Shown here: piece by piece, positions 6,101 through 62,163 of the stretch
Position numbering within the stretch: the first letter of the stretch is position 1
Layout: each line of letters opens with the position of its first letter
DNA from: a virus
Length of the DNA stretch: 64,000 nt
IMG/VR virus record: IMGVR_UViG_3300029305_006219
Direction: 5' to 3' (one strand)
Notes under the pieces: generated by a model
The model's input: the letters and a program-made list of their open reading frames with translations, nothing else
The model's database searches: none
What the model was told of the DNA's origin: nothing
Translations under genes and position numbers: made by a program

Positions 6101-6321
6101 GCTACGACTTTGGTATCGATAAATGAACTAATAAAATCTGTGTAACTTAATTGTTCATCAGCAAATCCATTAAGCTTTGCCATTTCAGTTCCAAATTCAT
6201 CTTGCATTTTGTTATAAGCAGTAACAAAATTTTTCTTTAATTTAACATTAACTTCCATATCTCCAATGATATCCTCCTGTTGTTTGTAAAAATCCTTGAC
6301 AGCATCGAGATATGTTTTCAT
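3184..6321 (-). CDS. nrdD: Anaerobic ribonucleoside-triphosphate reductase NrdD, intein-containing, read through 2 in-frame TAG codons
   Basis: ORFs 4663..6333, 3646..4566 and 3184..3615 are one reading frame separated only by TAG at 4663-4665 and 3646-3648. C-terminus has a CPVCG zinc site and a RIVGFYTP glycyl-radical motif. TGA stop overlaps the nrdG ATG. Confidence 0.85.
4744..5880 (-). mobile_element. Intein (about 379 aa) with LAGLIDADG homing endonuclease domain inside nrdD
   Basis: Starts CYKGEEL and ends ILSHN followed by +1 Cys (CFAYDLKDL, aligning with E. coli NrdD FNC-MLIDLKG). Contains LGMALSEGN and IAGMIDGDGTI dodecapeptide blocks. Confidence 0.7.
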
Positions 6322-6922
6322 GATGTATGCCAAGCTCTTTCTCTGCTTCTGCTAGAGATTTAAAGTTTTGATTTAGCTCCACACAATAAACTGGAGTAAC
6401 TCTTTTATCTTCAGATAGAGGAAGATTATTTGATAAATAATCTTCATAGTATGTCCAATGAAATTTATATGCAGTGTGTAATTTTCCACGACAACACGCA
6501 ATAATATTTGCATTAGCAAAACCCTTTAATCGTTCAATTTCTTTTGCGCTATCAAAAACCTTTTGTGTTTCTAAACATATAATTTTTCTTTTTGTTTTAC
6601 AACTATTACTCATTTTTTGACGAGATTCTCTTGAATATTCATTATTCAATCCGCCACTTTTTATATTATAGCCACTATTCACAGTATCATATTTTGTGAT
6701 AAGTTCTTCTTCTTTTTGATTAGCTTCCTGTAATGTTAAGTTCTCATATAAAATAGTCTATTCAAAATTATCCCATCCATATTTTTCAATAGCATGATAA
6801 AATTTAACACAGCCAGTATAGTTAGAGGGGTGACAGCGACGCGTGATATCTTTAGACTAACCAATATATTTTTTGCCATTTATTTTATTGGTATAACAAT
6901 AAATGCAATATTGATTATCCAT
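6248..6922 (-). CDS. GIY-YIG homing endonuclease (HE1) between nrdH and nrdD, 2 in-frame TAG
   Basis: N-terminus MDNQYCIYCYTNKINGKKYIG[TAG]SKDITRRCHP...YGWDNFE[TAG]TILYENL, then the C-terminus of ORF 6248..6682 with two C-x-x-G...GY.W.Y repeats. TAGs at 6857-6859 and 6758-6760. Confidence 0.8.
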
Positions 6923-7139
6923 TAGCATGCTCCTTTGCCCAATTAGTAAACCACTTAATAGCTTCTGGGCCTGTATAGATAGTACCATCCATACGAAGCG
7001 CGGGAGCAGCTTTTACTCCAAGAGCAATAATTGCATCTTCATCTTCAATATGCTTATAGCTGATACCAGCTTTATCCATTTTCATTTTTAACACTTTGCA
7101 CTGGGGGCATCCAGGCTTTGAATATAAAGTTATATCCAT
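6915..7139 (-). CDS. nrdH: NrdH-like glutaredoxin
   Basis: 74 aa with a CPQC redox motif, adjacent to the nrd genes. Confidence 0.7.
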   Translation of the reverse strand: MDITLYSKPGCPQCKVLKMKMDKAGISYKHIEDEDAIIALGVKAAPALRMDGTIYTGPEAIKWFTNWAKEHANG

Positions 7140-7214
7140 GTCATTTTCTCCTTTTCATTTAATTTTGACATTATAATATAATTTTTATTATAATTAGTTA
7201 AATTATTTTTGACC

Positions 7215-7922
7215 TCATTTTGCTTTTATCAACTTTAAATGTTCACTAAAAACAGCCGGATCTTTACCAAGAGATAACCACATTCTACTAATAGGCAAAG
7301 TAATACCATAGTTCATAAGTAGGTCTGGATTGGTATTATTATCCATATTTGCAAACCTGTAATATTCAAATTCAAGGTCGCTAAAATCTGTTTCATCTGT
7401 AAAATAACGACGACACATTTCTGCACAATTAGGATTATCAGAGCGTTGTAAATAACGCATTAAGCGCATTTTATCAGGTGCGTCCACATAAATTACTATG
7501 GTTTGAATATTAGGCGCCTCAAGAAGAGCAATTACACCTGCAGGGTTAAATACACCTATATTAATTTTATCGGTTACTAATGAGTCATAACCAGTGCCGT
7601 AAAACCAACCATTAAATTCTGTTGCTTCAAAGAGATTCCCATTTAAAACTCTACGAGTAAAATCTTCAATAGAAAGGTAATGGTAATCTATACCATCTTG
7701 TTCATTATCTCGCGGCGGGCGCGTAGTACAGCTAACTATTGAATGAAAAATATCTGGATGTAATTCATAAGTAACTCGCTGAATTAAATCTTTACCTGCG
7801 CCCGCCTTGCCTATAAGCGCCACTACTTGATATTGTTTATCCATAAATTCTTGTTTGACCTCTTTCTTTTTGTATTTCTTGTAAAGATAATAGTAGTTGA
7901 TAAGCTTCACTATAATCTTCAA
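7215..7922 (-). CDS. Guanylate kinase-like nucleoside monophosphate kinase
   Basis: P-loop GKAGAGKD and TTRPPRDNEQDGIDYHYLS resemble the guanylate-kinase signature. The start may instead be the internal ATG near 7844. Confidence 0.55.
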   Translation of the reverse strand: MKIIVKLINYYYLYKKYKKKEVKQEFMDKQYQVVALIGKAGAGKDLIQRVTYELHPDIFHSIVSCTTRPPRDNEQDGIDYHYLSIEDFTRRVLNGNLFEATEFNGWFYGTGYDSLVTDKINIGVFNPAGVIALLEAPNIQTIVIYVDAPDKMRLMRYLQRSDNPNCAEMCRRYFTDETDFSDLEFEYYRFANMDNNTNPDLLMNYGITLPISRMWLSLGKDPAVFSEHLKLIKAK

Positions 7923-8000
7923 ATGATTCTGTGGTAATCTCTATTTTATAGAGATTACCAGCATTTTCATAATCGGGGGTAATTACCCGTTTTATATCAA

Positions 8001-11978: not shown

Positions 11979-12866
11979 TTATTCTATATACCTCCAATAA
12001 TATCCATATGCTTTTCTTTGCTTTCTGGCAGCTGCGCAAATATTACTTTTATCTTGTAATCCTAGAGCTCTAGCTGCATCTGCTCCAGAGTCATATTCAG
12101 CAATTATGCTATTATCTAACGTGAGTTGTTGAATTCTTTTCTTAGGGCGTCCACTAGATAACTTATTCTAATAAATTTGTACCCACTCTTGGATATCTCT
12201 TTCATCTGCTTTGTATTTCCAAAGAAAGCCGTAAGCACTTTTCTATTTCTAAGCACATACCTAACTAATTGCTGTTTGTTGAAAACCATTAGCCCTGCCG
12301 CACTCTGAGGCTGATTCCCATTCTTGGATAAAATATCCATTTAAATCATACTGTAGTACAGGATAAGCACATCGTTTTGCTACTGCGCAACCAAATCTTG
12401 CGGCTATCTCTTCTCGTGAAATTCCTGCTCCTCTTAATCGAAGTCGGGCAGTTTTTTTTGAACAGCCTATTTTTTCAGCAATTTCTTTAATTAAAAGACC
12501 TTGATTCCAGCCATCAAGAAAAAGCTGAGTGGGATATAGAATCGCCCCTTGTCCTCCAAGAACTGCATTGTATCCATTATTAGGGTCGGTGCTGTCAAAA
12601 TATTCTATATAATACATTTCTCGCTCAAATCTAATTTCATCAGGGCATTTCTCTAGCGTTTCAATAATAAAATTTTGTTCTCCGTATTTTCGTATAGCAC
12701 AAGAAATATGATAATAATATCCATGATCACCTTCTTTAGAATGAGCCCTTCTTATATGTTCCCTCCACCTTGTCTCAACCCCTCGAATAGTTTCTCCTAT
12801 ATAAACTTTATTGTTTATTTGGTTGGTAATTTTATAAATATAAGCCATAAAATGCTCTCCTTTCAC
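11979..12866 (-). CDS. GIY-YIG homing endonuclease (HE2), 4 in-frame TAG
   Basis: MAYIYKITNQINNKVYIGET...R..H, then reading through TAGs at 12261-63, 12249-51, 12243-45, 12168-70 gives two C-terminal repeats KSAYGFLWKY and RKQRKAYGYYWRY. TAA at 11979-81 lies 3 nt before the dnaE ATG. ORF 12116..12340 in the other frame is spurious. Confidence 0.8.
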
Positions 12867-13625: not shown

Positions 13626-13944
13626 TTATTTTCCATGCTCCTATTTCAAAGTTATTTAGATCTATTAGCGGCGGATCGCCAATGAAAGCGATTTTTATTG
13701 GCTTTTGAAGTTCGCTTACGCCAAGTATCCAAAGAGAATTGGGATCTAGCCTCTCTGGGTCGTAGTATACTTCTACAGGTATCTGTTTTTCTTTTATTTT
13801 TTGTCTGAATAAAAGATACAATTCTTCAAAAGATAGCTCTCTTACATCAGTCGTTGCTTTTATGTTCTCAATTAGATCGTGTAATTCTGCTTCTATATAT
13901 GGTTTCATTGCTACCTCATTTCCGTTGATAATATTCTTCTTCAT
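13609..13944 (-). CDS. Hypothetical protein
   Basis: 111-aa ORF. Confidence 0.35.
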   Translation of the reverse strand: MKKNIINGNEVAMKPYIEAELHDLIENIKATTDVRELSFEELYLLFRQKIKEKQIPVEVYYDPERLDPNSLWILGVSELQKPIKIAFIGDPPLIDLNNFEIGAWKINDRKI

Positions 13945-14887
13945 TTTCTTTTGTTAATAGAAATCTTGAAGTTTCTAATTTTAAATCGTTTAGGTCATAC
14001 TCTTGATCATATGGGATACGAATTAATGGAATATTATGTTCAAAACAATATTTATTTTTAAGTAAATCGTTGTTGCGAGTTTCTTCAAAATGCTCTTTTG
14101 TATTCCAAGTATTTATAGTATCTTTGCGATATGAAAAATGTTGTTGTCCATCAAATTCAATAATATAAGAGTCTTCTATATAAAAATCAAATCTAGCCTT
14201 TGCACCAGAGGCTAACAAACAGTCTTTAAAACTCTTTTGGTTTGTAAAGCTAATATCGGCTTCTTGTAACATTTGTGTAATTTTTGTTTCATTATAGGAT
14301 GCGCCTAAACAGCCGCAACTTTTTGTTTGCCCCACAGTTAAATAGCCAGAAGGAACTTCCGTATAGTTACCGCAATCACATAAGCATTTCCAAATTACAT
14401 AAGATCCAATCCTTTTTTCAGTTGGTTCTAAAGCAGTTAATAAGCCAAATTTTTGATTACTTAAATCAATAAAATGCCTAGGTTTACAAAATCCACAGCT
14501 TTTGGTGTCGCCAGCCGTAAGACTTGAGCCCATTACTATATGCGCCCTTCCACAAGAACATTTGCAATTCCAAAAGGCATGGCCACCTTCTGTTTTGGCT
14601 AAACTTAAAACTGTAAGTTCTCCAAAAGTTTGTCCTGTTAAATCTCGAACTGGTCTTCCGCCACTTTTATTTTCGTGTTTAAGACAGCCACAAGATTTAG
14701 TATGATCTGATGTTAAATGGTTTTTAGACACCACTAATAAAGTCTTTGCTTCACATTGACATTCGCAGAGCCAAAAGACACCTTTTCTCCCTGTTGGATG
14801 CTCTACTCTATATAGCGCTTTTAAACGATTAAACTATTTACCAGAAATATTTTCAGCTTGCCCTATTGGAATTTGTTTGTACTCCAT
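13916..14887 (-). CDS. Zinc-ribbon-repeat protein with C-terminal PD-(D/E)xK/Vsr-like nuclease domain, 1 in-frame TAG
   Basis: Starts MEYKQIPIGQAENISGK[TAG]FNRL... (TAG at 14834-36) and continues in frame into ORF 13916..14734. Repeated W.C.C.CG...TKSCGC motifs; C-terminal YIIEFDGQQHF resembles Vsr/DUF559-type nucleases. Confidence 0.5.
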
Positions 14888-19801: not shown

Positions 19802-20554
19802 TCATCCTTTCTTTAAATAATTTTCTACATCTTCAATAAACAACCAATGATAACCATAGCCTTTAGTTTCACCTTTATTACGACAACTTCTACGAATGTG
19901 AGAACCATCTGTTTTTCCTAGTGCTCGAGCAGCGGTTTGACTTGATGAATACTCTTGTTTGGTTTCTATGCAATATACTGGTTTACTATTGGTTTTAACT
20001 GAATTTATTCGCATTTTATCTAATTTAATTTTTTCTTCTTCTTTATGACTATCCCAGTATACACGAGATGCCATTCTTCCTTTTAAGGTATTATTTTTTC
20101 GTTCTTCAAAAGAAGAATTTTCTATATATTTTACATTAATTTCCTTTAAAAATACTTTCTTTTCTTCTTTTTTATCTTCTGGTAAATTTTGCCAAGTATT
20201 TTTAGAAGCAATACCAATTTTCTTTTTAGTTTCTTCTGTGTGCAAATGTCCAAGCTGACCTCCTTTTGTTAAATTATATCCAAAATCAGGATTGTCACTT
20301 TTATAAAATTGGATATAAAATTTTTCCCAATAATCAGCTTCATTTTGACTTAGCAAGTTTTGTTTTAAAATTATATGCTCAAAATTATCCCATCCATATT
20401 TTTCAATGGCAGAATAAAAAAGAGGGCTTTTAATATATTGCTTTCCATTAGCTCTCCATCTCTACTTTATATTACAGCTTTGTCCTATATATCTTTTCTA
20501 ATTTTGCTTATTAACATGAGCATAGATACACCATTTTTTAATATTTTCATTCAT
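19802..20554 (-). CDS. GIY-YIG homing endonuclease (HE3), 2 in-frame TAG
   Basis: MNENIKKWCIYAHVNKQN[TAG]KRYIGQSCNIK[TAG]RWRANG...YGWDNFEHIIL then ORF 19802..20356, ending in a C-terminal CRNKGETKGYGYHWLF repeat. Note the genomically encoded Q in YIGQS. TAGs at 20498-500 and 20462-64. AAAGGAGG RBS. Confidence 0.8.
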
Positions 20555-25700: not shown

Positions 25701-26690
25701 TACCCTCTTTTTCAAGATATTTTAATGGGAATAGACTATATCTTCATCCATTTTAAACGGTGGATGTCATGCACTTCGATTTAAAGGATTTTCACCTACT
25801 TTTATATTATTATAAAAGCCCTACTCCTGTTGAGGAAATTTCATCCTCCAGTGGGATAGTCGTTGAACCTTCTCCTATTCGGAGCTTGGCTGCTGATTGC
25901 CCAATTTAATCAATTTTTAACATTCGCACTTAGATTTCTTTCATTCTTATGCTGTAGTTTGATTAACTCTAAGGGGTTTCCAGCAATTCACATGATTTGC
26001 TTAATGGATTGCTCCATTAAGGGCCTTATATATTTCATATTTTCGTCTCAACCGAGAGGCCTCGGTTGAATGTTCATAAATTTTATTTAAAATTTGTACA
26101 ACTGCAGCGCCTTCTTTATGAATTTGATAAGCAGAGGTTCCACAAGGACTTACTTTATTATCAAACTCTAAAATTTCTAGCATTTGTTTTGTGCAGATCT
26201 CAGTTTGACTGACAAAACTTAAACTAGGAATATTGTTTCTATCTTCTCTAATGTGAATACTACCATCTGCATCTAGCAATCCTCTTGCAAAATCATAAAT
26301 ATATTCATTAGGAATGTTTTCAAGGGGAATACTAAAAATAGAGGTTTTTGCAGGTACTATATTATATTGTGCTAAATAACGTTTTAACTCTGCCGAGTTT
26401 ATAGATACAGTTAAAGCATGACATCCAGTGTTATTAGTACGCTCTGTAATGGGCGCATTAGATTCAAAGAATGCTTGTAAATTTTCAAGCTGCTCTCTAT
26501 CTATATCTTTTAACTCAACTCTTACTCTGGCTTCATTTTTAGCTACATTTCCATCTCCAGCTAAAAATCCAAGCCAATAATATTTTTCATGAGGGTCTAT
26601 TTTAATGTTTGTTAAATTTAAAGGATATTTTCTCAAAAAACTTTCAACTCCTTCTTTAAGAGAGCGAAAATATGAAATAAAAATGTTAAG
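25700..26690 (-). mobile_element. Group I intron interrupting the AAA_24 ATPase gene and carrying a LAGLIDADG endonuclease ORF
   Basis: Minus-strand core elements: P-like AATTGCTGG (about 25950), Q-like AATCAGCAGCC (about 25890), R GTTCAACGACTA (25849-25860), S AAGATATAGTCT (25726-25737). Upstream exon ORF ends at a TAA at 26686. Boundaries are approximate. Confidence 0.6.
26001..26636 (-). CDS. Double-motif LAGLIDADG homing endonuclease (intron-encoded)
   Basis: LGFLAGDGNV and ARGLLDADGSI motifs. TTG start with an AAGGAG RBS. Confidence 0.75.
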   Translation of the reverse strand: MRKYPLNLTNIKIDPHEKYYWLGFLAGDGNVAKNEARVRVELKDIDREQLENLQAFFESNAPITERTNNTGCHALTVSINSAELKRYLAQYNIVPAKTSIFSIPLENIPNEYIYDFARGLLDADGSIHIREDRNNIPSLSFVSQTEICTKQMLEILEFDNKVSPCGTSAYQIHKEGAAVVQILNKIYEHSTEASRLRRKYEIYKALNGAIH

Positions 26691-30083: not shown

Positions 30084-30308
30084 TAACTATTTCCGCGAGT
30101 TTTATTCAGTCCAAAATCATATGTCTGATAGAGGTCAATATAAAACTTCTCCTTTTCATTTAATTCATTGATATTACATTTTTCAAGTATTTCAAAAGTA
30201 AAGTTATCAATACCCTTTTCTTTTGTAAATGCATAAAGTTGACTTGTTACAGGGGTATCGATACCTAAGCTGCATTTGACATGCGTTACCCAGCGCTCTT
30301 TAATGTTG
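30084..30308 (-). CDS. GIY-YIG endonuclease HE5, 3' exon (second half of the catalytic domain)
   Basis: Reads CNIKERWVTHVKCSLG...DNFTFEILEKC...GLNKTRGNS with an in-frame TAA immediately upstream, so it cannot stand alone. It matches the continuation expected after YIGQA in paralogs (HE3: YIGQSCNIKQRW). Confidence 0.5.
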
Positions 30309-31598
30309 CATTAATTTTGACTATTTTTTACTGTAATTTTTATTACAGGAAACCATTTCGGCATTTAAAGTACTTCGTTTCCTAAAATACTACTATGTGC
30401 TAATAATAGCCCTACTTCCCCGCCCATAAGGCCTAGGGAATAGTCGATACAGGTTTTTCAATTAATCCATTATTTTCTAGCAGGATAATCATAATCTTTA
30501 AGAATATAAGTTTTTCCTAAATTAATATTACTTATAGTTGAACGCCCTATGTTATATTGTGCACCAATATTATCCATAGAAGTATTAGTATTACGTAACA
30601 GATCTAAAATATTCTAAACATCCTCTAAAGTTAAATTATGATTATTGCGAATGTTTTTTGCTCTAATAGGATAACTATATTTCCCTATTTCTGCAAATTT
30701 TCTTCCATTATTAATGTCTCTTAATACCCTGATTGGAATATTATATTTAATATCTATACCACCTTGAATTGGTAAATCCCAACGATACAATAAATCTTCT
30801 TTTAAATTAACTAGCTCTTCTTCGGAGGAAAAATAATCTAAAACTTCTGTCTTACACGCTGAGTCATGATTATTTTTTCTTAATGGGTAAACTAAGTTTG
30901 GATTAACATAGGTTCTACCTGTTGAAATATTTAATATAGTACCTTGTCCTACTCCATATTTATTACCTATCTCTGTTAAAGAAAACTCTGTATGATTAAT
31001 TAACAAATCAATTATTTCTTTAAGTTGATTTTCATTTAAAGCTGCATTAGGATTTTCAGTCCCTCGTTTCCCCGAAGCGTCTCCTCCTCGGGTTTTATTG
31101 TATCCGTGTCCATCTTTAATATAGGTTTTATAAAAGGAAATCCAATATCTTTCTTTATCATCTAATAACGATAAGTCAGAAACTGTTTCAAGTAATTCAA
31201 ACTCATCAATAATAATATTGTATTCTTTCATTTTTTGCTCACACAATAGAAGTTCTCTTGAACCATGTCCAGCTTGACTATAAGAATTATGCTCCATAAG
31301 TCTAGCTCGAATATTTTGAGCCTATCCAATGTAAGCTTTTCCGTTTGGGTAATTAATTTTATAAATTCCGCTAATAATGTCATTTGGTGTCATCTTAGAT
31401 AAAAATAATTTTTGCATTTTATGCCTCCTATAATGTTATATTCATCAGTTGTTCATATATATATTATTTTTATGGAAGATGGATTAATCAAAATTTCCCA
31501 CGAGATTGTATTTTATTAAAAAATATTTTCCTCGTTAGCCACTATAAGTTAGCGACCCCTAGCAGCTACTAGGTAAAGTTTTTCATCGGCCAACATTG
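30309..31598 (-). mobile_element. Putative group I intron carrying GIY-YIG HE4, inserted in GIY-YIG HE5
   Basis: 5' exon ends ...YIGQAGT, followed by an in-frame stop VNVGR*. Intron ends in G before exon 2 CAACATT. R-like TCGACTAT and S-like ATAGTCAA lie in the 3' 170 nt. Boundaries are proposed, not proven. Confidence 0.45.
30470..31417 (-). CDS. GIY-YIG homing endonuclease (HE4) with tandem C-terminal HTH repeats, 2 in-frame TAG
   Basis: MQKLFLSKMTPNDIISGIYKINYPNGKAYIG[TAG]AQNIRARL... then ORF 30614..31297. The TAG at 30614-16 reads through into a second HTH repeat DNIGAQYNIGRSTISNINLGKTY before TAA at 30470-72. GGAGG RBS. Confidence 0.75.
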
Positions 31599-41062: not shown

Positions 41063-41137
41063 TGGCAGGGGAGGTAGGAATCGAACCTACGTCTGTGGTT
41101 TTAGAGACCACGGTCTTGACCTTTCGACGACTCCCCA
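41063..41137 (-). tRNA. Amber suppressor tRNA, tRNA-Gln-like, anticodon CUA (reads UAG)
   Basis: Minus-strand sequence UGGGGAGUCGUCGAAAGGUCAAGACC GUGGU CUCUAAA ACCAC AGAC GUAGGUUCGAUUCCUAC CUCCCCU G CCA. The anticodon stem is 5 bp Watson-Crick and the loop is CUCUAAA. U1.U72, G2-C71, G3-C70 and the G73 discriminator follow the bacterial tRNA-Gln pattern. It closely parallels the tRNA-Gln(UUG) at 62245-62316. Confidence 0.75.
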
Positions 41138-49313: not shown

Positions 49314-49730
49314 TCATAGTAGTTTCTCCATTTCCGACACATCAACGCCTTTGCCGCGAAGATTGTCGATGCACTCTTTCAAGTATTCATCGTTATGTTC
49401 GGGATAAATGATTTTACTCATTTGGTTTGCATCCATCCAAATATTAGATAATACTGTGGTATCAACCCAGTTAATATCATGTTGTAAAACATTTCCTCTC
49501 CAGTTAGGATCTTCCCAAATGAGATCAGGGTGATATCCTCTTTTCTGCATTTCCATCATAATGTGCCAATGATATGCAACCAATAGTTCAGGTCTATGAG
49601 TAAACACATAATCAACTGTCGCATGTTTCTTACCCCAACCTTTACCTCTTAAAGCGGCACATTCGCGATGTTGACCTAGCAATTGTTGTCTAGGAAGGTA
49701 GGGTATTAGTTTTTGATGCCAGAGTCTCAC
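49314..49730 (-). CDS. Pyrimidine-dimer DNA glycosylase (T4 endonuclease V/DenV-like)
   Basis: N-terminal MRLWHQKLIPYLPRQQLLGQHRECAALRGKGWGKKH resembles T4 endoV [27 protein letters not shown]. Confidence 0.45.
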   Translation of the reverse strand: MRLWHQKLIPYLPRQQLLGQHRECAALRGKGWGKKHATVDYVFTHRPELLVAYHWHIMMEMQKRGYHPDLIWEDPNWRGNVLQHDINWVDTTVLSNIWMDANQMSKIIYPEHNDEYLKECIDNLRGKGVDVSEMEKLL

Positions 49731-50353
49731 GCTTTTATCCCCCTTATTTCAAATCCATAACAAAATAACTTTTCAACATCAGGTTGAACAGCTATTGTTT
49801 TAATCTTTTTACGCATTTTTTTACTTTCAAATTCTGCGCCCATCTGTTTTTTAATAAGCGTAAGCGCTTCTGTGATGGCTATGTCACCATTTTTTACTGT
49901 AAATTTATTTTTTACTTTACTTGAGGCGGGCGCATTTCGAGGAATAATCTCAAAAGCATCATATTTTTGACCGTAAGGACAACCTGCAGAAACTATTTCT
50001 TTTGAGTTGTCAATTTTGCCAATAAAATCCATCTTTGCGCGTTTAATATTTTCTTCATAAGTTACCCACTCAAGATTTTCTAAGCTATTATCTCTTTTAT
50101 TATGATTTTTGTGATCAACAGTAAGATTTTCAGCCTCATCCGTGGGGCGCTAAGTAAGCATCACTAAACGATGAGCAAGTATTTTCGTGCAAGTTGTGCA
50201 ATCAACTTTAACACAACAATACCCTTTCTGACTTATTTTAATAGGCAAATCGGCTTTATCTCTATTACGAAAGCGCCCATGCGTTGATACATAAACACCA
50301 TAATCTTTATTAAATTTCCATCTTTCAAAGTGAATTTTAAGTGTTGGCAACAT
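49727..50353 (-). CDS. HNH homing endonuclease, 1 in-frame TAG
   Basis: ORF 50150..50425 (GYCCVKVDC...AHRLVMLT) reads through TAG 50150-52 into LTVDHKNHNKRDNSLENLEWVTYEEN (the HNH core) and ORF 49727..50032. The upstream M at 50425 lies inside the repeat module; ATG 50351-53 is preferred. Confidence 0.7.
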
Positions 50354-50455: not shown

Positions 50456-51556
50456 TTAATTGTAACCATTATTTCTTGTATGCTCGATATCTATTGTAAA
50501 TGCTTCTTTATAAATATCTTCCATTTTATTTGGTTTAATATTATATTGTTCTCTTAGCTCTTCTAAATGCTTATTGTAAATAGATATTATATCTTCTTGT
50601 TCAGCAATTTTTTCACGAAGAGCTTTAGCTTCTGTTGCATGAGTATAAAATTCTTCCTCAGAAAGATCTCCTTGGATATATTTTATTGTCTTATAGTCTT
50701 TTTTGGCTAAACTTTTTTTATAATTATCTATTTTTTGCTTTGCAATATTAATTTGTCCAAAAGTAGGTGCGGCAGCGGTTAAATAATCTTTTTCATCAAT
50801 TTCAAGACGACGACCTTTATCATAAATTTCTCCCGTAGCTTTAAAAAATTCTAATTCTTCAGGAGTTAGTTCAGAAAATGCTTTTGTCCAACGATAATAA
50901 GCATTTATTTTATCGTTGGGAAAATGTCCTACTAAAACACCGTTAGCAAAATATAAATTATTTTCAACTATAAGAATATAGCTCTTACGATTGATTGAGT
51001 CTGCTATAGTTGCTTTTTTTACTAAAGTTATTTCAGCTCCGTCAAGACCACAGCCTTTATCTCCTACTTTCCATATTTTACTTCCTACTACTTCATTTTT
51101 CTTTGCAGAAAAAATTGTATGGCTTTGACGAATCTGTAACAAAGAACCGTTATCAAAAACGAAAGTTTCCCATCCTCTTGTTTGAGCAGTAACAAAAGCT
51201 CCATAGCATTTTGCATTGATATAGGTTTTGGTAAGTGGGTCCCAACTTTTAACATAGTCTCCATAACGAACATCGCAAATTTTTTTAGAGCTTCCATCCA
51301 TCATAAGGATATCGGTATCTTCTTTGAGACAAGTCATTCCTTCAACATAATCTATATTATCAATAATATTGTTTAAAATTGTTTCCAAGTTTTTGGAAGA
51401 TGTCGTAGATCCCCACGAATCTTTACAAGAAATAGAATTTGGAAGTGTTATATTAGTACTAAATTCCGCTGTGTTGTTAGCAATAGTCAAAACTACATTG
51501 CCTGAATTGTCAAGAAGTTTCCAACCATTGTTTGTGCTTTTCATTAATGTTGCCAT
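50456..51556 (-). CDS. Hint (Hedgehog/intein-like) domain protein, possibly structural
   Basis: CLKEDTDILMMDGSSKKICDVRYGDYV ... LIVENNLYFANGVLVGHF has an intein N-terminal and C-terminal splicing-block pattern. ATG at 51554-56 with an AAGGAG RBS is preferred over the upstream M. Confidence 0.45.
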   Translation of the reverse strand: MATLMKSTNNGWKLLDNSGNVVLTIANNTAEFSTNITLPNSISCKDSWGSTTSSKNLETILNNIIDNIDYVEGMTCLKEDTDILMMDGSSKKICDVRYGDYVKSWDPLTKTYINAKCYGAFVTAQTRGWETFVFDNGSLLQIRQSHTIFSAKKNEVVGSKIWKVGDKGCGLDGAEITLVKKATIADSINRKSYILIVENNLYFANGVLVGHFPNDKINAYYRWTKAFSELTPEELEFFKATGEIYDKGRRLEIDEKDYLTAAAPTFGQINIAKQKIDNYKKSLAKKDYKTIKYIQGDLSEEEFYTHATEAKALREKIAEQEDIISIYNKHLEELREQYNIKPNKMEDIYKEAFTIDIEHTRNNGYN

Positions 51557-51639
51557 TTTGTTAATCTCCTTTATAATATTTATTTTATTTATTATTTCAA
51601 AGAGGGTATAATTTGTACCCCATTGATACTGTGTTATTA

Positions 51640-54477
51640 TCACGAGTTATAATCGTTGTTTGCTATTATCATATCAGTTAGTTTTACAAAACCCTGAGAC
51701 ATTGAGTTGATGTCGACGTAAAACTGATTATCATAATAATTTGTATCGATAACCTGATTATATTCATCAACATAAAATCCGCTTGTGTTATATGGAGTGT
51801 TAATCCACTCTTGCCAAGTCATACCTTCTAAGGCGGTGTATGATGCTCCGTTAACGGTAAAGGTAATTATAGGCAATGTTCTTGTAAGAGTATATGTGTG
51901 ATTTGCTACGATTGTATCACTTGTTTTAACATATTTATATATGATGTTACCATCCTCATCTTCGTCTTCTCTCAAACATATAAGATTTCCCGTCATGTCC
52001 TCACAAACATATCCAGGTATCAATGGATCACTCCAATAATTTTCAGAAGGAACATAGTAACTGCCGTCGCTGGCGTTCATAAAATCAGCCCAAGTCATAC
52101 CCTCGGTGACTGTATATGATTCATCTCCTGCATCGTTACCGTCAATATAGAATGTTATTGTGCTAGGTGTTGGCTCTTCTTCGTTTTCAAAATTAAAGTA
52201 AATATCTATTTGAGTATCTGTTGAAGTCGTATAATCAATTGTAAGGTTATTGTTTTCAATATCGATAGAGTTAATATTTGAAGTTAAATTATCAATACCA
52301 TTTAAGGTTATTAATTCATTGTTCTACGAACCCATATTTATTGTTTTAGTATTTTCAGTTGCAAGAAGCTCTATTGATATTGGGCTTGTTATTTCTACTT
52401 CAATCCCTACAGCATCGATATAATAGTTACATCTTCCTATAATAATATCCAAATCACGACAATGTCTACCGCTACCATCATTAAGCCATACTGCGCCGAT
52501 ATATCCATCTCCATCTTCATCGATAATAGATTCTGCTACACAGTTTTCTTCTCCGTTAACAGTAAGAGAGTTCCAAATAACAAAATCCTTTGTATTATAC
52601 GCGCTATCGCACCATTCATACCACGTCATACCAGGCTCAGCCATGTATGTTATTCCTTCAATAGTGAAAGTGATTTCAAGTGTAATATATGAATCATCTA
52701 TATAATATACACCATTTTCTGTAATTGTATCATTATAAGATACCATCATCTTGATATCATCGCTATTGTAGTATACTGCGCCGATATATCCATCTCCATC
52801 TTCATCAGTTGCAGATGTTGCTATTAAGTCTTGATTATATGAGCTATTATAAGGAACAAAACCTGCTTTATTATATGAGCTATTACACCAATCGCTCCAA
52901 ATCATATTCCTATTAGATGTGTATTCTGTTCCATTAATAGTAAATGTTATTGTACTTGTTTCGTTTTCAAAACTAAAGTAAGCATCTATTTGAGTGTCGG
53001 TTGAAGTTGCATAATTAATTGTAAGTTCATTATTTTCATTAATATTAATAGAGTTGATATTTGAAGTTAAATTGTCAATACCATTTAATGTTAATCTATT
53101 CTATGAATCTATATTTACTGTTTTAGTATTTTCAGCGGCAAGAAGCTCTATTCTCATTGGACTTGTTGTTCCTGCTGGTATGTCTCCAATTGTGTATGTA
53201 TAATTTGCCATAATAAGACTACTTGGGAAAACTGGCTTACTACCATCATTGCAATATACCGCTACTTGTGATCCCTCTTCTACCACAAAACCATCTTGAA
53301 TAATATAGTATGTACCATATTCACTATTCACCCAGTCTTGCCAAGTCATACCTTCTTCAAATCTATAGAACTCGTCTCCCGTTAGATTATCTTCGATATA
53401 AAATATTGAGGTTGAAATAGGTAATGAATCTGAAACTATATATGAATGATTTATTCTAATAACATCACTGGGTTTAACAGCAGTGTACTCATTTAAAAGC
53501 ACATATCGACCTGTAGAATTTTCTATTATATAATCATTTTGAACTACATATTCTGCATCATCATTACTTGAAATACTATCAATCCATTCTTGCCAAGTCA
53601 TACCACTCTCGGCGAAATATGATTCTTTTTGCATATCATTTCCTTCAATATAAAATGTTATCATACCTACAATATAATCTCTATAAACACTCCAATTTGT
53701 TGCTGCTTTCCAATCATCAACAAGTTCATAGGGAACTCTAATTTTACAATTTGAAGGAATGTTTAAAAAAGCACTTGTATTAGCAAGAGTTGGTATACTT
53801 GTATGAAAAGAAAAATCGTAATATTGCATTGAAGTACAGTTGGCAAATGCGCTTGATCTAATAGTTGTAACGCCATTAGGAAAATTCATTTGTGTAAGAG
53901 CCTTACACCCATAAAAAGCTTGCTCTCCAATTGCTGTAATATTACTAGGTAGAGTTATGCCTGAAAGAACTTTACAACCGCTAAACATGCGATATCCAAT
54001 CCAGGAAATATTACTGGGTAAAGATATATCTATAAGAGATGTACAATTATAAAATGCTTCATCTCCTATTTTTGTAATACTATCGGGTAGACTTAAACTC
54101 TTAAGCTTAGCACAATTAGTAAAAACACCTACTCCAAGTTGTGTAATAGTGTTAGGAATAATTATATTTGCATTTGACTCAAGTCCATGACAATTTGAAA
54201 AAGCATAATCACCAATATAAGTAATATTATTTGGTATATTTATTTTTGTAAGATATGTGCAGCCCTCAAAAGCAGCTCGTCCTATTTTTGTTATATTAGC
54301 TAAATCCTGTGTAGTTATTTCAGTAATTGTTCTATCAATTATTTTAGCTAGTTTACTTTGTTCTTCTGTATCTGCATTTAAAGCCGTTACAATAATATCA
54401 CGATCGCAATATTTACCTGCTGTTTTTAAACGAATGGAAGATCCGCTTGTTACATTTATATTATGTTCAGCCATCAT
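51640..54477 (-). CDS. BspA-type leucine-rich-repeat tail fiber/receptor-binding protein with C-terminal tandem repeats, 2 in-frame TAG
   Basis: ORFs 53101..54477, 52324..52905 and 51640..52098 are one frame joined by TAG 53101-03 and TAG 52324-26. LRR_5 repeats (NITYIGDYAFSNC...). Repeated (R/S)IELLA(A/T)ENTKT(V/I)N(I/M)(D/G)S and GMTWQEW blocks. Confidence 0.6.
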
Positions 54478-54794
54478 TCTACCTCCCCATTATAAACAGG
54501 TAGGGCATTTATTACTGCTGAAACTATTTCATTTTTATCTTCATCTGTCCAATAATCCGTTCCTTTTACAGGAGTATAACCATCGTCACCTTTCTCTCCA
54601 GTTAATTCTAGAAAAGGAAGATTTCCTACCTTAGTCGTTCCATCTCCTATTTTTAATCGAGGCTTAGATTCTCCTCCTTTACCGTCAGAATAAATAATTA
54701 ACTCTCCTTTTAAAGGTATAAAAGTCGTAGCTAATTCCCATTCTGCGGCCGTACCTATTTTATGCTAGATACGAGCATTAATTTGTTTTGCCAT
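54474..54794 (-). CDS. Tail fiber N-terminal anchor-domain protein, 1 in-frame TAG
   Basis: MAKQINARI[TAG]HKIGTAAEWELATTFIPLKGELIIYSDG...RLKIGDGTTKVGNLPFL, plus a collagen-like GEKGDDG. TGA overlaps the ATG of the LRR gene. RBS AAAGGAG. TAG at 54765-67. Confidence 0.55.
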
Positions 54795-54999: not shown

Positions 55000-57480
55000 T
55001 TATTCTTTTGAAGCCTCTACAATATTTTTCATTGTTTTCTCAAGGCTGGTTCCACGAAGCAGAGTGTTCCATGTCTCAGCGAGAGATTCACCCTTAGCCA
55101 TAGCGGCAGGCGCGAGGTTTTTGCCAAGTCCATTCATAATCTCTGCATTTGCCTGAGACTCAAGTGCTGCTACAAGATCAGGGCTAATTGCCGCAAATAT
55201 CTTAGCAACGTTGTCTGCATATGCCTTCTGTTTTGCTTCTTCTATTGCAGCAAGCTGCTTCTCAGTTGCGATCTTGGCATCATCTGCCGCCTTATCACGA
55301 GCAAGCTGTGCTTTCTGAATTGCATCGAAGATAGGCTGCATATCAGACTTGGCAGTAGCTTCAGCTGTTGCCTCAGCACGCTTCATAGCGGCGATCTCCG
55401 CCTGATTCTTTAGCTTTTCTTCTTCAGCCTTCTGGTTAAGCTCAAGCGCATACATCTTATTCTGGTGATTAAGTTCTGCCTCTTCACGATCGAATTTAGC
55501 AATCTGCTTAACCATTTCAGATTTACGAGTAGCATCAGAGAGTTCAAGAGTTTTCTGAATCATTTCCTTCTGGTGTGCTTCCATCATCTTAGCGACTTGC
55601 GCCTCAACCTGAACATTGAGAACTTCAACATCAGTTACAAGCATACCATTTTCTTTAAAGAGTCTTCCGTTATGAGGCGCCTGATCAGTTTCTGCTTTAG
55701 CTACATTGCCAAGCGCAGTGTTTCTGATGATGTCTGCCGCTTTTGCGTAGAACTCTTCAATATTATACTTCTTAGCTTCGCGCTTAAGGAGACTGCGCAT
55801 TCTGTCACACATATGTTTTACATAGTTATCTACAGAGAACCACTTATCCTTATATTCGGGAAGGAAGTTTACATTATAGGAGAGAAGGAACTTAACATCA
55901 ACAAAGTCCTTTGTCTGAACACTGATGATATCAGATACCTTATTATTGTCAATACGGAGATATGCAGTCTGAATCAGATTGTCTGTTGTCTTAGGCTTAC
56001 CTGTTGAAAGATTTACAATTTCAAGAGTCTCATCATACTCAAGGAGTCGAGTAGCAGGACCAATGATTGTCTCTCTCTTACCAGACTTGGATACAACATT
56101 TACTGCATAGCCAGTCCATACATTGATAGCAACAACTCCATCATACTTTGTATCAAGCACAATAGTACGAGGCTTTGTATAAGATACACCGCGCGAAATA
56201 TTAGCGGTTGCCGCAAAAATCGCAAGAGCATCATTTTGATTTGCAGTGCTATATGCATTATTAATTATGTCTGTCTTGTTAGACTTACCATTGCGCGCAT
56301 CGCGCTCAGCCTTTGCTTCAGAAAGACCGAGGTTATATTCAAGCGCCTCACGGTTGCCAGGATAGAAAGTTTCGCACTCCTTAACAGAAAGTACTCTCTT
56401 AACAACTACCTCAAAACGAGGATCAGGAAGATACATAGCGGGACCCTTGACCATCTTAACAGTTCCCTTAATTCTATCAAGGATATAGCGTCCTTCGCCC
56501 TCAGGAATTGCTATTGCATGATGCATATACTTACCGTCATACTGAATAAGTGCGTGCTCAGGGCGAGGATAGTAAATCATCTGATTATTACCTGTAATAA
56601 AGAGTTCTTCGCCAACAGGATGCTTAACTCCATTCTCTGTATATTCTGCGATAACCTTTACATAAATACCGCTAATAGGCGAAAGTTCAAGTGCGCGGAA
56701 TATTACGCCCTTCTGAGGGGTCTGTACGAAGGTCTGTGTAGGTGTAGGGAATACAACCTTGGGTCCATGAGCATAGACCTTTTCACCGTTTTCATCTTTA
56801 AGGATACAATACTCAAGGCGCTCAAGGGTGACTGCATCGCGCACATACTCAGAAGAGTTATCTTCACAAGCGAGAACTTCAATACCCGTAGGAGGAATAT
56901 AGAAAGATACTTCAGTACCCTTGATTACAAGTTGCTGACCTGTAAAGTAGGTCTCTTTCTTAACGATCTCTTTACCTTCTGCATCGAGAATAGTTGCGGA
57001 AGCAGCGTTCTTGGCGGCTGCCACTGCGTCATAAACGCGAGCAATGAGGTACTGGTTAGAACGAAGCTTATGTCCTCGAATAACTTTTGCCATCTGACCA
57101 GGGAATAGCGCAAAGGAAGCAGGTCCAGAAATATTAACCTTAATACCAATTTTCATATTATCGGGAGTAACATTCGACTTACCTGCAAGAGGGTATACAC
57201 CATCTGCCGTAGGGTTCTTGAGAATCACATACCAACCCTCGGGCGCCGATACAAATAGCTGTTTTGCTCGCTCGAAGTCTTTTACTTCATCGAATTTCTT
57301 TGTCTTATTGTTGAAAATAACACAAGTCTGCTGCTGAGAAATAGTTACCATAGCAGGTCCTGCATAGGTTCTAATCTCACCGTTAGTGCAGTCCTGAATC
57401 TGGACGTATTCATTGACTGCAAGTACAAGGTCGCGTGTGCGACCTCTATTGTCATTTGCATTGTAATTAAAATCATTCAT
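55000..57480 (-). CDS. Large flotillin/MVP-like SPFH-domain coiled-coil protein (function unknown, possibly structural)
   Basis: 826 aa. C-terminal Ala/Glu/Lys-rich coiled coil typical of the flotillin/YqiK C-terminus. No TAG. Confidence 0.35.
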   Translation of the reverse strand: MNDFNYNANDNRGRTRDLVLAVNEYVQIQDCTNGEIRTYAGPAMVTISQQQTCVIFNNKTKKFDEVKDFERAKQLFVSAPEGWYVILKNPTADGVYPLAGKSNVTPDNMKIGIKVNISGPASFALFPGQMAKVIRGHKLRSNQYLIARVYDAVAAAKNAASATILDAEGKEIVKKETYFTGQQLVIKGTEVSFYIPPTGIEVLACEDNSSEYVRDAVTLERLEYCILKDENGEKVYAHGPKVVFPTPTQTFVQTPQKGVIFRALELSPISGIYVKVIAEYTENGVKHPVGEELFITGNNQMIYYPRPEHALIQYDGKYMHHAIAIPEGEGRYILDRIKGTVKMVKGPAMYLPDPRFEVVVKRVLSVKECETFYPGNREALEYNLGLSEAKAERDARNGKSNKTDIINNAYSTANQNDALAIFAATANISRGVSYTKPRTIVLDTKYDGVVAINVWTGYAVNVVSKSGKRETIIGPATRLLEYDETLEIVNLSTGKPKTTDNLIQTAYLRIDNNKVSDIISVQTKDFVDVKFLLSYNVNFLPEYKDKWFSVDNYVKHMCDRMRSLLKREAKKYNIEEFYAKAADIIRNTALGNVAKAETDQAPHNGRLFKENGMLVTDVEVLNVQVEAQVAKMMEAHQKEMIQKTLELSDATRKSEMVKQIAKFDREEAELNHQNKMYALELNQKAEEEKLKNQAEIAAMKRAEATAEATAKSDMQPIFDAIQKAQLARDKAADDAKIATEKQLAAIEEAKQKAYADNVAKIFAAISPDLVAALESQANAEIMNGLGKNLAPAAMAKGESLAETWNTLLRGTSLEKTMKNIVEASKE

Positions 57481-59748: not shown

Positions 59749-59823
59749 TGGAGGCGCGCCCGCGACTCGAACGCGGAATCAAGGCTTTGCAGGCCTGCGC
59801 CTTAACCATTTGGCTAGCGCGCC
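59749..59823 (-). tRNA. tRNA-Cys (GCA)
   Basis: Cloverleaf with anticodon loop CUGCAAA, U73 discriminator, and CCA encoded. Confidence 0.8.
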
Positions 59824-59913
59824 ATTTTATCAAAGCCCCCGCGACAACGTACATCGCGGGGGTAAGCAGAAAGGAAGGGTAGAAAAATGATAGGCTGTAG
59901 GAGCCAGCCTATA

Positions 59914-59988
59914 TGGAGCAAGTACTGGGAGTTGAACCCAGATCTTCTGCTTGGAAGGCAGAAGTAATAGCCGTTATACGACACCTGC
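59914..59988 (-). tRNA. tRNA-Gly (UCC)
   Basis: Anticodon stem UCUGC/GCAGA, loop CUUCCAA, U73, CCA encoded. Confidence 0.8.
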
Positions 59989-59989
59989 A

Positions 59990-61100
59990 GAGGGCGCTTA
60001 AGATTGTCAATTGAATTTCCTGTGGAGTAGTTAATTGTATCCACACTTTTCCCAACCCTACCAAGTACTATCTCTTGCGAGACCGTGCAAACGGCTTCTT
60101 TTGACAGAGCGCTGTGTTTGGGGCAGAGGCTCTCTTAAGCATTATTATAGATTAACTTGATATTTGCGCAGTGATCACCTGATTCCTGCTCCTATTGATC
60201 TTTTCCGAAGGTGCGACCTTCGCACAGTTCTGCATATCAAGTGAAAATGGGAAGAAACGAAGACCTTTCCCGTAGTCCTCGTTTAGCGACACTAACGGAT
60301 TTCCAAGGGCGGAATGTGTCAGTTACCCGAGCTTATGACCCAGCCACAGAGGTTTGTCAGAGTATGCTCTCCGCAACACTTTTGCATCTTCAAATGTCGA
60401 CGACTTACAGGCGTGCGCCGCCTTGTCTCAGAAAGGAGGTGAGACTATAATTGAAGAAATTAGTCGCTTTTAAGGCTCACAGCGTCGCCACGAGAAGGCT
60501 TTCTTCTTGACGCCATATGGAGCACCTGATTGGATTTGGACCAATGTGGACAGAGTCTCGCGCTTACAAGGCGCGTGCAATCGACCGCTATGCGACAGGT
60601 GCATATATTAAAGAGGTGACAGCTTTAGGTCAGCCAACCGCTCATTGTTTTCTTTTGGGCGTGGTATTTGCTTACCATCCTCAATTCGAGTAAATAACCG
60701 TTTCATCTTTCAATCTACATCTGGCTTAGACATTTTTAATTGGTCTACCAGAACCTCGCCACATCCTCGGCGCCAATCGCACCCTACTTATTTCACCGTA
60801 GCTACTCTTCGGGTGGACGAAATCCACGATTTTCTCGGCATTTGATTTCAGTTTATTTTCGTGGGCGCTCTCTCAAGCCTACTCTGGATTATCCAGCAGT
60901 ATTCGCCTCAAAATACTCAATGAAATCAAGGTTATTCACTTATAGATAAACTTTTCATCAATATTAAGGATATTATAACACTGGCATTTATCAATCCCTG
61001 TTATAAAAACCCTGACACTTTTGTGCTCGTGCTGCGAGGTCAGCTCGTGGTTAGCACTCTTATAATCCTGAATGCTCCAGAAGTCATCTACATTTGCTCA
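59990..61100. ncRNA. GC-rich non-coding block between tRNAs; candidate large structured RNA (GOLLD/ROOL-like?)
   Basis: About 1.1 kb with no ORF over 80 aa in any frame even with TAG treated as sense. GC content is clearly above the flanking genes, and there are many local hairpins. No family could be assigned from sequence alone. Confidence 0.25.
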
Positions 61101-61119
61101 AGGCTTGGAAGTAGCTCCA

Positions 61120-61195
61120 TGGTACCGACTCTGGGATTCGAACCCAGAAATTTTAGTTCCTAAGACTAACGCCTATGCCATTCGGCTAAGTCGGC
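61120..61195 (-). tRNA. Class-I tRNA with anticodon UAG (would read CUA/CUN); identity undetermined
   Basis: GCCGACU UA GCCGAAUGGCAUAGGCG UUAGU CUUAGGA ACUAA AAUUU CUGGGUUCGAAUCCCAG AGUCGGU A CCA. Short variable loop, A73, G1.U72. Confidence 0.6.
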
Positions 61196-61512
61196 ATAAA
61201 GGTTGTTGATTTTGCGGTAACAACCAACCCGCTGAAGGGAGGAAAACCATGAAAAGTCTCGTACTTGGAGGGAACTGAGAATTACGATATCTCGACATCA
61301 ACCTTAACAGGGTTGCGCTCTGCCTCTGAGCTAAGCTCCCATATTGCGCCTGTGAGGTTTACTTCAGTAGCGCCAACTGAAGGTGACTTACTTCGCTTCT
61401 TTATATACCGTTTTCCGCTATTGCTCCATACCTCGTTACCATATCGCGGTGAACCGCACCTTGATCTGAGTCGGGAGTAGTTTAGTCACTAATCCGTGTT
61501 AACGGTTATATT

Positions 61513-62163
61513 TTAATCAGCCTACCATTTCCAAATGAAACCATAAGCAGATTTTCTAATTCCATTTGCACACTCTCGAATGTGCGTTGAAATACCTTTT
61601 ACTTTCACTGAAGATGTTAAATTATTATCTATTAAATACTGAGAAGCATCTGTTAAAGAAGAAAAACTTTGAATATATTCATTAGTTTTTTTATCAAACA
61701 TTTTTACAGCTTTGCTAAACAACTCTTTATTAATTGTTTGAGCAGTTTTTAATACGCCTCCTCGTTGATGAATAACAATATATACGCTATCTACTGAAAT
61801 ATTTAATTTTTTTGCCACTTCTGTTGCATTTTGCAAAACTTCATAAGTGGAATAGATTAAATCATAATCTAAATAACGTTTTCCATCTCCTCCTAAAGTA
61901 GCATTATAACCATTTTTAAATGATTGTTTTTTCTCAATCCAAAAGATTTCTCTTTCAGAAGGATTATCTGTTTCTTCAAGCAATTCTATATGAAAATGTT
62001 CAATTCCATATTTGTTTATTGCTCGATATAAAGGACGATCCTTGCATCTTTCCTTTTGATAATCACTACAATGCTCTTTCCAACGTTTTTCTATAGACTT
62101 TTCTGTTTTACCAATGTATATTTTACCATTTATATCATTGGTAATTTGATAAATGTATGCCAT
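61513..62163 (-). CDS. GIY-YIG homing endonuclease (HE6) in the tRNA cluster, 1 in-frame TAG near the C-terminus
   Basis: MAYIYQITNDINGKIYIGKT...R..H...NGYNATLGGDG...; C-terminal CANGIRKSAYGFIWKW[TAG]AI then TAA. RBS AAAGGAG. Confidence 0.75.

Follow-up and report, generated by a model that had tools for sequence, protein, structure and literature searches.

Homing endonuclease genes, introns and an intein in the replication module of an uncultured phage predicted to read TAG as glutamine

The window analysed here, a stretch of 64,000 nucleotides (nt) from the virus record IMGVR_UViG_3300029305_006219, comes from an uncultured phage and carries its replication and nucleotide-metabolism module. 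Every credible gene lies on the minus strand, as do all the features of the window described below. With a probability of about 0.85, this module belongs to a phage that translates TAG as glutamine (Gln) and has been colonised by selfish nuclease elements that represent four or five structural families, all of them known. The inventory comprises five GIY-YIG genes (four free-standing and one intronic), one HNH_3 gene, one PD-(D/E)XK gene, one gene of the phrog_374 family, one LAGLIDADG gene located in a group I intron and one LAGLIDADG-type intein in NrdD. The nine endonuclease genes and the intein endonuclease domain occupy 8.4 kb, i.e., 13% of the window. An earlier reading of the letters and open reading frames (ORFs) without database searches, hereafter the sequence-only reading, had described a very high load of homing endonucleases. 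This load is real, yet it had been undercounted, the genes at 62562-62993 and 13916-14887 having been missed. The TAG recoding was also overlooked. Selfish nuclease elements occur about once per 6-7 kb here, and the phage family offers a rich set of occupied and empty alleles for homing studies. For comparison, T4 carries about 15 such genes in 169 kb. Every part falls into a known family and shows the behaviour expected of it, and most of what is described is ordinary biology in a recoded phage; what deserves to be kept is the recoding context, the corrected inventory, an intron family that is invisible to Rfam and a family-wide enrichment of TAG in endonuclease genes.

The proposed mechanism is that of homing. 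During co-infection, each nuclease would cut the allele that lacks its element, close to the point of insertion, and the break would be repaired from the genome that bears the element, thereby copying the element into the cut allele. The free-standing GIY-YIG enzymes would find their targets through one or two C-terminal helix-turn-helix (HTH) modules of the NUMOD1 type tethered to the catalytic domain, as tethered modules do in I-TevI, the Seg proteins and I-HmuI.

Reading of TAG as glutamine

None of the ORFs that the sequence-only reading listed as GIY-YIG or HNH endonucleases is open under the standard bacterial code (table 11). The GIY-YIG (five), HNH and PD-(D/E)XK endonuclease genes together contain 12 internal stops, each of which is TAG, and the 2179 endonuclease codons contain no internal TAA, no TGA and no frameshift. 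A suppressor tRNA with anticodon CUA is encoded at 41063-41137 (ARAGORN; Rfam tRNA, 58.9 bits). Sequence comparison shows that its acceptor (UGGGG..CCCC) and G73 resemble those of tRNA-Gln, features that we take to be Gln identity elements for GlnRS. Once TAG is read through, genes terminate at TAA (54) or TGA (26) and never at TAG. NrdD is covered by a single continuous Pfam NRDD match that spans two TAGs; the second falls on a Gln (NTEQIPGE) that is invariant among 11 of 11 orthologues, and 5 of the 11 have Gln at the position of the first. Relatives, here IMG/VR loci labelled L001 onwards, also show the alternation of TAG with Gln codons at two positions of the AAA_24 gene, which are both TAG in the window and L110, CAA and TAG respectively in L111 and L112, and both CAG in L115. 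TAG is thus the only internal stop, it never closes a gene, it falls on conserved Gln positions and a cognate tRNA(CUA) is present; the phage therefore uses genetic code 15, in which TAG specifies Gln. The proteins submitted to profile searches were translated in this way.

Two candidate ribozymes were noted among the tRNA genes. A match to HDV-F-prausnitzii, a hepatitis delta virus (HDV)-like family, lies at 62181-62248, directly 3' of tRNA-Gln(UUG) and 5' of the GIY-YIG gene GIY6 described below; at 37 bits (E=2e-4) it falls under the gathering score of 44. A weaker CPEB3/HDV-like match at 60452-60526 overlaps the last few nt of a tRNA-Thr and runs on in the 3' direction. These matches resemble the 'theta ribozymes' of recoded gut phages (PMC10879173), which fits with recoding. 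The region 3' of the suppressor tRNA yielded no HDV-like ribozyme, only a terminator-like hairpin.

Nuclease families, introns and insertion sites

The six GIY-YIG domains claimed by the sequence-only reading all exceed the Pfam cut-off when TAG is read as Gln (PF01541, 23.2-45.2 bits vs 22.6). The I-TevI residues Y6, Y17, R27, E75 and N90 are invariant across the six domains (alignment A2), and the catalytic residues located downstream of TAGs are intact. Five of the six domains belong to genes that PHROGs profiles identify as 'homing endonuclease', with E-values from 1e-22 to 1e-34; the sixth, as shown below, is part of another kind of gene. The GIY-YIG paralogues are mutually 25-39% identical and thus represent separate lineages; this level of identity also rules out a recent intragenomic duplication. 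Strong Shine-Dalgarno sequences precede the endonuclease genes, with the exception of the HNH gene, whose sequence is weaker.

The four free-standing GIY-YIG genes occupy the sites that had been described for them, namely the nrdH/nrdD junction, the position directly upstream of dnaE, the side of the primase gene and an interval between tRNAs. GIY1 (6248-6922; 224 amino acids (aa)), at the nrdH/nrdD junction, matches Pfam GIY-YIG, NUMOD1 and I-HmuI_NUMOD-like as well as phrog_314 'homing endonuclease' (E=3e-34), and has in-frame TAGs at codons 22 and 55. Its 3' end overlaps the start of nrdD by 11 nt and contains the nrdD ribosome-binding site. GIY2 (11979-12848; 289 aa; Pfam GIY-YIG, 32.8 bits; phrog_314/7168) stops 3 nt before dnaE and carries its TAGs at codons 196, 200, 202 and 227, all within the DNA-binding half. 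GIY3 (19802-20554; 250 aa; 28 bits; phrog_314/7168) lies at the primase/RecJ junction, where its start overlaps the primase stop (ATGA), and has TAGs at codons 19 and 31. GIY6 (61513-62163), in the interval between tRNA-Gln and tRNA-Asn, gives the highest scores (Pfam GIY-YIG 45.2, SegE_GIY-YIG 25.7) and aligns to the I-TevI catalytic domain (1MK0/1LN0) with E=2e-12; its 213 aa are followed by a TAG and 2 further codons.

These four proteins share a C-terminal repeat, often in tandem, as had been noticed from the sequence. Six copies are present: two in GIY1 (aa 109-162 and 172-224, within 6251-6598), two in GIY2 (12201-12374 and 11982-12149), one in GIY3 (19826-19996) and one in GIY6 (61516-61722). 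They align with invariant S, G and W residues and a '..AYGF.W.Y' ending (alignment A1), the GIY1 copies terminating in ..YKFHWTY and ..GGYHWRY. Searched as whole proteins, GIY1 (23.3 bits; I-HmuI_NUMOD-like 32.9), GIY2 (27.3) and GIY6 (24.4) exceed the NUMOD1 cut-off. Searched in isolation against NUMOD1 and I-HmuI_NUMOD-like, one of the six repeats exceeds the cut-off, four match weakly and one does not match; the second GIY1 repeat scores above both cut-offs (I-HmuI_NUMOD-like 28.6 bits, NUMOD1 23.9 bits), and the first is weak. From these profiles and the alignment, the repeat is assigned to the known NUMOD1/I-HmuI-like helix-turn-helix module of phage homing endonucleases. The window repeat, '..I..C..G..KSAYGF.W.Y', shares with the NUMOD1 and I-HmuI NUMOD-like modules (PF07453, PF22083) its profile matches, its C-terminal position and its ability to occur in tandem, but the best solved relative of its profile is PDB 8B6E (E=5e-4) and not I-HmuI. 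The 8B6E entry is the 66-aa protein sCTP-23166, which ends in ..GGYHWVY and is a stand-alone version of the repeat.

The closest parallels are I-TevI and SegA-G of T4. As in these enzymes, a GIY-YIG domain with identical catalytic residues forms the N-terminal part and a DNA-binding region the C-terminal part, and the genes are free-standing amid replication and nucleotide-metabolism genes or reside in a group I intron, with a sporadic distribution among relatives. The window proteins differ from I-TevI in that their catalytic domains are 26-46% identical to it, their genes carry TAG read as Gln, and their DNA-binding region consists of one or two NUMOD1-type HTH repeats, whereas that of I-TevI is made of a zinc finger, a minor-groove helix and an HTH.

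The HNH gene announced by the sequence-only reading is well supported (49727-50353; 208 aa; Pfam HNH_3 39.9 bits vs a cut-off of 24.8; phrog_59, E=9e-24). It lies upstream of a T4 endonuclease V-like gene, and its single TAG (codon 68) falls inside the HNH domain and is spanned by the HNH_3 match. The relative L134 holds a divergent HNH gene (53% identity) at the same place; in L144 no HNH was detected at the site, which contains 1 kb of unassigned DNA, and this comparison is ambiguous.

Two further nuclease genes were added to the inventory. The first (62562-62993; 143 aa; TAG at codon 24) encodes a PD-(D/E)XK nuclease of the I-Ssp6803I type (PDDEXK_5, 115 bits vs 26.1; PDB 2OST, E=1.7e-5). 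It starts 15 nt past a tRNA gene, and its homologues in related loci (L159-L183) sit within phage tRNA arrays in every case (25 of 25). The PDDEXK_5 family and the association with tRNA genes are shared with I-Ssp6803I from the cyanobacterial tRNA-fMet intron (PDB 2OST), but the window gene is free-standing amid the tRNA genes of a phage array and is not encoded within a tRNA group I intron. The distribution of the homologues suggests a family of free-standing, tRNA-gene-associated endonucleases. In at least eight of these loci, the PDDEXK_5 gene begins 25-30 nt past tRNA-Lys(UUU). In the window, an ARAGORN search allowing introns reports, at 63008-63161 and 15 nt upstream of the nuclease gene, a tRNA-Thr(UGU) whose anticodon loop holds an insert of 78 nt. 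This insert is itself an Rfam tRNA (63053-63127, 31 bits) that ends in CACCA, and it is too short to be a group I intron.

The second addition (13916-14887; 323 aa; TAG at codon 18) combines four Cys-rich repeats with a C-terminal nuclease-like domain and matches phrog_374 'HNH endonuclease' (E=3e-48), phrog_9084 'homing endonuclease' (E=8e-22) and phrog_7140 'intron encoded nuclease'. Its protein matches no Pfam family above cut-off, and a PDB sequence search returned no relative. The position of the gene varies among relatives, it is absent from L080, and its counterparts are TAG-rich (22 TAG per 3408 codons). It is of the endonuclease type and apparently mobile.

NrdD (gene 3184-6258) is interrupted at 4744-5880 by a 379-aa insertion that is exact with respect to 11 of 11 orthologues. 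The insertion begins with Cys1 (CYKGEE...) and ends in His-Asn (...ILSHN) followed by Cys+1, which bears out the earlier proposal of one intein. Two LAGLIDADG-like motifs, LGMALSEGN and IAGMIDGDG, are recognised in it by eye.

Both LAGLIDADG domains and both group I introns of the sequence-only reading were retained, although with unequal support. Intron 1 (26689-25695; 995 nt) interrupts the AAA_24 gene and is clearly detected by Rfam (Intron_gpI, 78.2 bits vs a gathering score of 50, at 25713-26068). It splits the protein between ..NRMA and DIIGY.., is preceded by U and has G as its last base, with exon 2 starting at 25694; it is precisely absent from the AAA_24 alleles of L110-L112, whose proteins are 94-96% identical. 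Its ORF (26001-26636) encodes a 211-aa protein with two LAGLIDADG motifs and no TAG (Pfam LAGLIDADG_3 34.4 bits, cut-off 22.5; LAGLIDADG_1 23.5 bits).

Intron 2 (31598-30309; 1290 nt) was recognised by its precise, in-frame absence from the alleles of L081-L083 (87-90% identity). It interrupts the YIGQA/..IKERW motif of its host gene, with a 5' splice site after U (GCGGU/CAAU) and G as the last base (UUAAUG/CAAC). The predicted ligated exon junctions of the two introns read ..AACCGUAUGGCU/GACAUUAUC.. and ..CAAGCGGU/CAACAUUAAA... Because Rfam is silent on intron 2, its group I assignment is drawn from comparative evidence only, i.e., the intron-less alleles and a covarying core. This 3' core is found again in 12 IMG/VR loci, which gives 7 distinct sequences when that of the window is counted, and it has homologues in the split dnaE of Enterococcus phage EF1 (L158) and in Lak megaphages. 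RNAalifold applied to the 7 cores, which belong to the 3' half, predicts a helix GACUAU/AUAGUC that closes around hairpins and is supported by 13 compensatory pairs. Intron 2 is probably of the group IA type, with R/S-like elements, P7, P7.1/P7.2 and P8 named by eye. On other contigs with an intron-2-type core (L146, L152 and L155), Rfam detects as many as three group I introns within 3 kb, which makes these regions very dense in introns.

Intron 2 encodes the fifth GIY-YIG endonuclease, GIY4 (30470-31417; 315 aa; Pfam GIY-YIG 30 bits; phrog_7168, E=3e-22), which has TAGs at codons 32 and 268. The C-terminal half of GIY4 contains two HTH repeats that are sigma-70 r4/CENP-B-like, with Sigma70_r4 and CENP-B_N matches near their cut-offs, and that are distinct from the NUMOD1 motif. 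The host gene consists of exon 1 (31599-32566), which encodes a transmembrane segment, a coiled coil of about 300 aa and the start of a GIY-YIG domain and carries four in-frame TAGs, and exon 2 (30084-30308), which encodes the remainder of that domain. The spliced protein matches Pfam GIY-YIG at residues 304-387 (25.2 bits) and has no DNA-binding module. What had been taken for a split, sixth GIY-YIG endonuclease at 30084-30308 is in fact the second exon of this gene. The coiled-coil/GIY-YIG gene is present in 29 related loci, and we regard it as a conserved phage gene that hosts intron 2; because its product lacks a DNA-binding module, it is not classed as a homing endonuclease.

The distribution of the elements was followed among 80 DnaE-anchored loci used for synteny comparison; over about 100 related phage loci in all, the elements are either present at or missing from conserved junctions. 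In 11 of 11 relatives with this type of NrdD, nrdH and nrdD abut with nothing between them and NrdD is intein-free. In L080 and L001, the closest relatives, no gene fills the slot upstream of dnaE, and in L020, L027, L029 and L071 other GIY-YIG genes are found there. The primase/RecJ junction is empty in most relatives, and L039 has a different GIY-YIG gene there (48% identity to GIY1). Together with the intron sites, element-free relatives thus exist at the nrdH/nrdD, dnaE-upstream and primase/RecJ positions, at both intron sites and at the intein site. For the GIY6 site, an exact 42-nt tRNA-Gln pattern search of IMG/VR for an element-free relative gave no match. Sporadic presence and the occupation of one slot by different lineages are a signature of mobility and not of conserved function; endonuclease genes scattered in this way over conserved junctions fit repeated invasion by homing elements. 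The dnaE gene itself, uninterrupted in the window, is interrupted in L080 by a GIY-YIG ORF after about codon 839, carries an insertion of about 1.2 kb in L049 and L050, and is split in Enterococcus phage EF1. Bacillota phages of the SPbeta, SPO1, Twort and EF1 types likewise have introns and inteins in conserved motifs of replication and ribonucleotide reductase genes, and over 104 nt the intron 2 core and the EF1 split-dnaE sequence share 84% identity; the window differs from these phages in its genetic code and has no close isolate by megablast.

In-frame TAG and alternative explanations

In-frame TAGs occur in 8 of the 9 endonuclease genes and in 5 of the 70 other genes (p=4e-7). Counted per codon, there are 14 in 2179 endonuclease codons vs 14 in 16763 others, i.e., 6.4 vs 0.84 per 1000 (odds ratio 7.7, p=6e-7). 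The first TAG lies at codons 18-32 in five of the nine endonuclease genes and twice coincides exactly with the Q of the YIGQ motif. The same enrichment is seen in relatives, with 35 TAG per 3555 aligned endonuclease codons vs 170 per 222179 (odds ratio 13, p=2e-25), and DnaE, primase, DnaB and Dda are nearly TAG-free there. The translation of these eight nuclease genes therefore depends on the phage tRNA(CUA), whereas the majority of the replication genes around them are free of TAG. This need for suppression may in turn delay or limit nuclease production.

Borges et al. (bioRxiv 10.1101/2021.08.26.457843) found that, in Agate phages, which recode TGA, the endonuclease of a group I intron inserted in an early gene carries an excess of the recoded stop, and proposed that in-frame stops hold back the endonuclease until late infection. 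The window resembles the Agate case in having endonuclease genes enriched in the recoded stop of their phage, but the codon is TAG (Gln) here and TGA (Trp) there, and the bias spans free-standing GIY-YIG, HNH, PD-(D/E)XK and phrog_374 genes together with an intron ORF, across a phage family. It extends the proposal to TAG and to several free-standing families; regulation is not established. A stronger generalisation would be that homing endonucleases of all families in recoded phages are systematically amber-gated and code-locked, the bias being selected and not the result of drift, which we consider rather unlikely. If it were true, nucleases would be made only once the suppressor tRNA is active, and cutting would be confined to a period that drives homing without harming early replication. 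They would also be non-functional after transfer to standard-code phages or hosts, and the spread of selfish elements would be shaped by the barrier that the code presents. In any case, a bias that is family-wide and involves several nuclease families turns a single earlier remark into a computationally testable hypothesis on recoding and selfish DNA. In practical terms, standard-code gene callers break these genes, so that the endonuclease load of recoded phages is systematically undercounted or called as pseudogenes.

A number of results weigh against the colonisation of a recoded phage by nuclease elements or against attaching a function to its TAGs. Most single NUMOD repeats fall below cut-off. 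The intein profiles are sub-threshold (Intein_splicing 31.5 vs 35.8; LAGLIDADG_3 17.3 vs 22.5), so that, of the two LAGLIDADG domains claimed, the intronic one is confirmed by profile and the inteinic one is recognised by its motifs. The Rfam model RF00028 does not match intron 2, whether 1.9 kb is searched at E<=1 or the 186-nt 3' core at E<=10, and the group I search is equally blank at the matching positions of the 12 homologous loci and in Enterococcus phage EF1. Five genes other than endonucleases contain TAG, namely NrdD, AAA_24, the RuvC-like gene, the LRR fibre gene and the coiled-coil/GIY-YIG gene. In part, the TAG excess follows the low G+C content of the endonuclease genes (about 31% vs 35%; third-position G+C 0.19 vs 0.28), and it could result from drift and not from regulation. 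Lastly, some relatives may use the standard code, and their TAG-interrupted endonuclease ORFs could then be pseudogenes; the sorting of relatives by code was a rough one based on 24-kb loci, and no conclusion draws on it. Profile searches, set beforehand as the refutation test for the sequence-only reading, nevertheless support its GIY-YIG, HNH_3, LAGLIDADG_3 and NUMOD1/I-HmuI_NUMOD-like assignments.

The possibility of pseudogenes can be extended to the window itself, where the interrupted ORFs would be decaying remnants in a standard-code phage and the load mostly dead. It has in its favour that every such ORF is broken under table 11, that homing endonuclease genes are known to degenerate after fixation and that some related loci may use TAG as a stop. 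Against it stand 2179 codons whose only internal stops are TAG, catalytic residues intact beyond those stops, a tRNA(CUA) and no gene ending in TAG; with TAG also at an invariant NrdD Gln and alternating with CAA and CAG in AAA_24, this reading is close to refuted and has next to no likelihood. A much more serious contender, to which we would give slightly less than even odds, accepts the recoding and homing and departs from the explanation preferred here solely on whether the dependence on suppression is selected. It holds that TAG accumulated with no regulatory meaning, through CAG-to-TAG transitions under AT pressure in any gene that is not needed before the suppressor tRNA is available, a class to which selfish genes belong. 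Indeed, the endonuclease genes have a high A+T content and few CAG codons (8 CAG to 70 CAA vs 180 to 362 in the others), and other non-early genes (RuvC-like, fibre) are equally or more TAG-rich. The excess also falls from 7.7-fold to 3.7-fold when the comparison is made with non-endonuclease genes of G+C <=34%. It remains significant after this filter (p=0.006), and composition therefore explains part of it but not all; the excess is moreover seen again across many relatives, and termination at the first TAG, at codons 18-32 in five of nine genes, would abolish the enzyme.

A last alternative concerns function: some free-standing nucleases could have been domesticated for competitor exclusion, recombination or degradation of host DNA, and not be engaged in homing. 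Free-standing seg and mob genes of T4 cause marker exclusion that benefits the carrier, and the coiled-coil/GIY-YIG gene, conserved in 29 loci and devoid of a DNA-binding module, points in the same direction. The other nuclease genes, by contrast, are sporadic at their sites, with different lineages in one slot, and domestication appears improbable. Homing by mobile nuclease elements in a recoded phage is the preferred explanation.

TAG is also unevenly distributed among the remaining genes. The gene for the RuvC/RuvX-like resolvase (193-702), recognised by a DUF3882 match just under cut-off (21.9 bits), has the highest TAG density of the window (4 in 169 codons). In relatives, RecJ from 15 loci accumulates 104 in-frame TAGs in total, in contrast to the near-TAG-free DnaE, primase, DnaB and Dda, which indicates that tolerance of TAG within the replication module is gene- and lineage-specific.

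Gene content of the window and its relatives

Profile searches identified genes for dUTPase, NrdG, NrdD, a glutaredoxin-like NrdH and a guanylate-kinase-like protein, together with DnaE (1324 aa), a Dda/RecD-like helicase, gp30.3, RecJ, DnaB and a Toprim primase whose profile match is sub-threshold. They also identified the AAA_24 ATPase (Sak4-like), an NAD-dependent ligase, GyrA/GyrB, RNase H and a sigma-70 factor, as well as the T4 endonuclease V-like glycosylase, an LRR_5 fibre-like protein, a major-vault-protein-like protein and the tRNA array. A megablast search of 12 kb against GenBank phages returned matches of 180 nt at most, i.e., no close isolate, and the DnaE of the window shares about 40% identity with YorL from SPbeta-like Bacillus phages. 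At least 187 relatives are found in IMG/VR, with DnaE identities of 59-88% and contigs of about 100-165 kb, and the gene order DnaB-primase-RecJ-Dda-DnaE-Gmk-NrdH-NrdD-NrdG-dUTPase is kept across the 80 DnaE-anchored loci.

The major-vault-protein-like protein (826 aa; 55000-57480) matches Pfam MVP_shoulder (89 bits) and Vault_3, and its gene, which has no in-frame TAG, is 77% conserved in the close relative L134. Between this gene and the HNH gene, L134 lacks a block of three genes (50456-54794) that encode a Hint-module-like protein (sub-threshold, E=3e-4), a protein with a weak Mtd_N match and a 945-aa fibre-like protein of the BspA-type LRR_5 family with two in-frame TAGs. This block looks like an accessory or host-range cassette.

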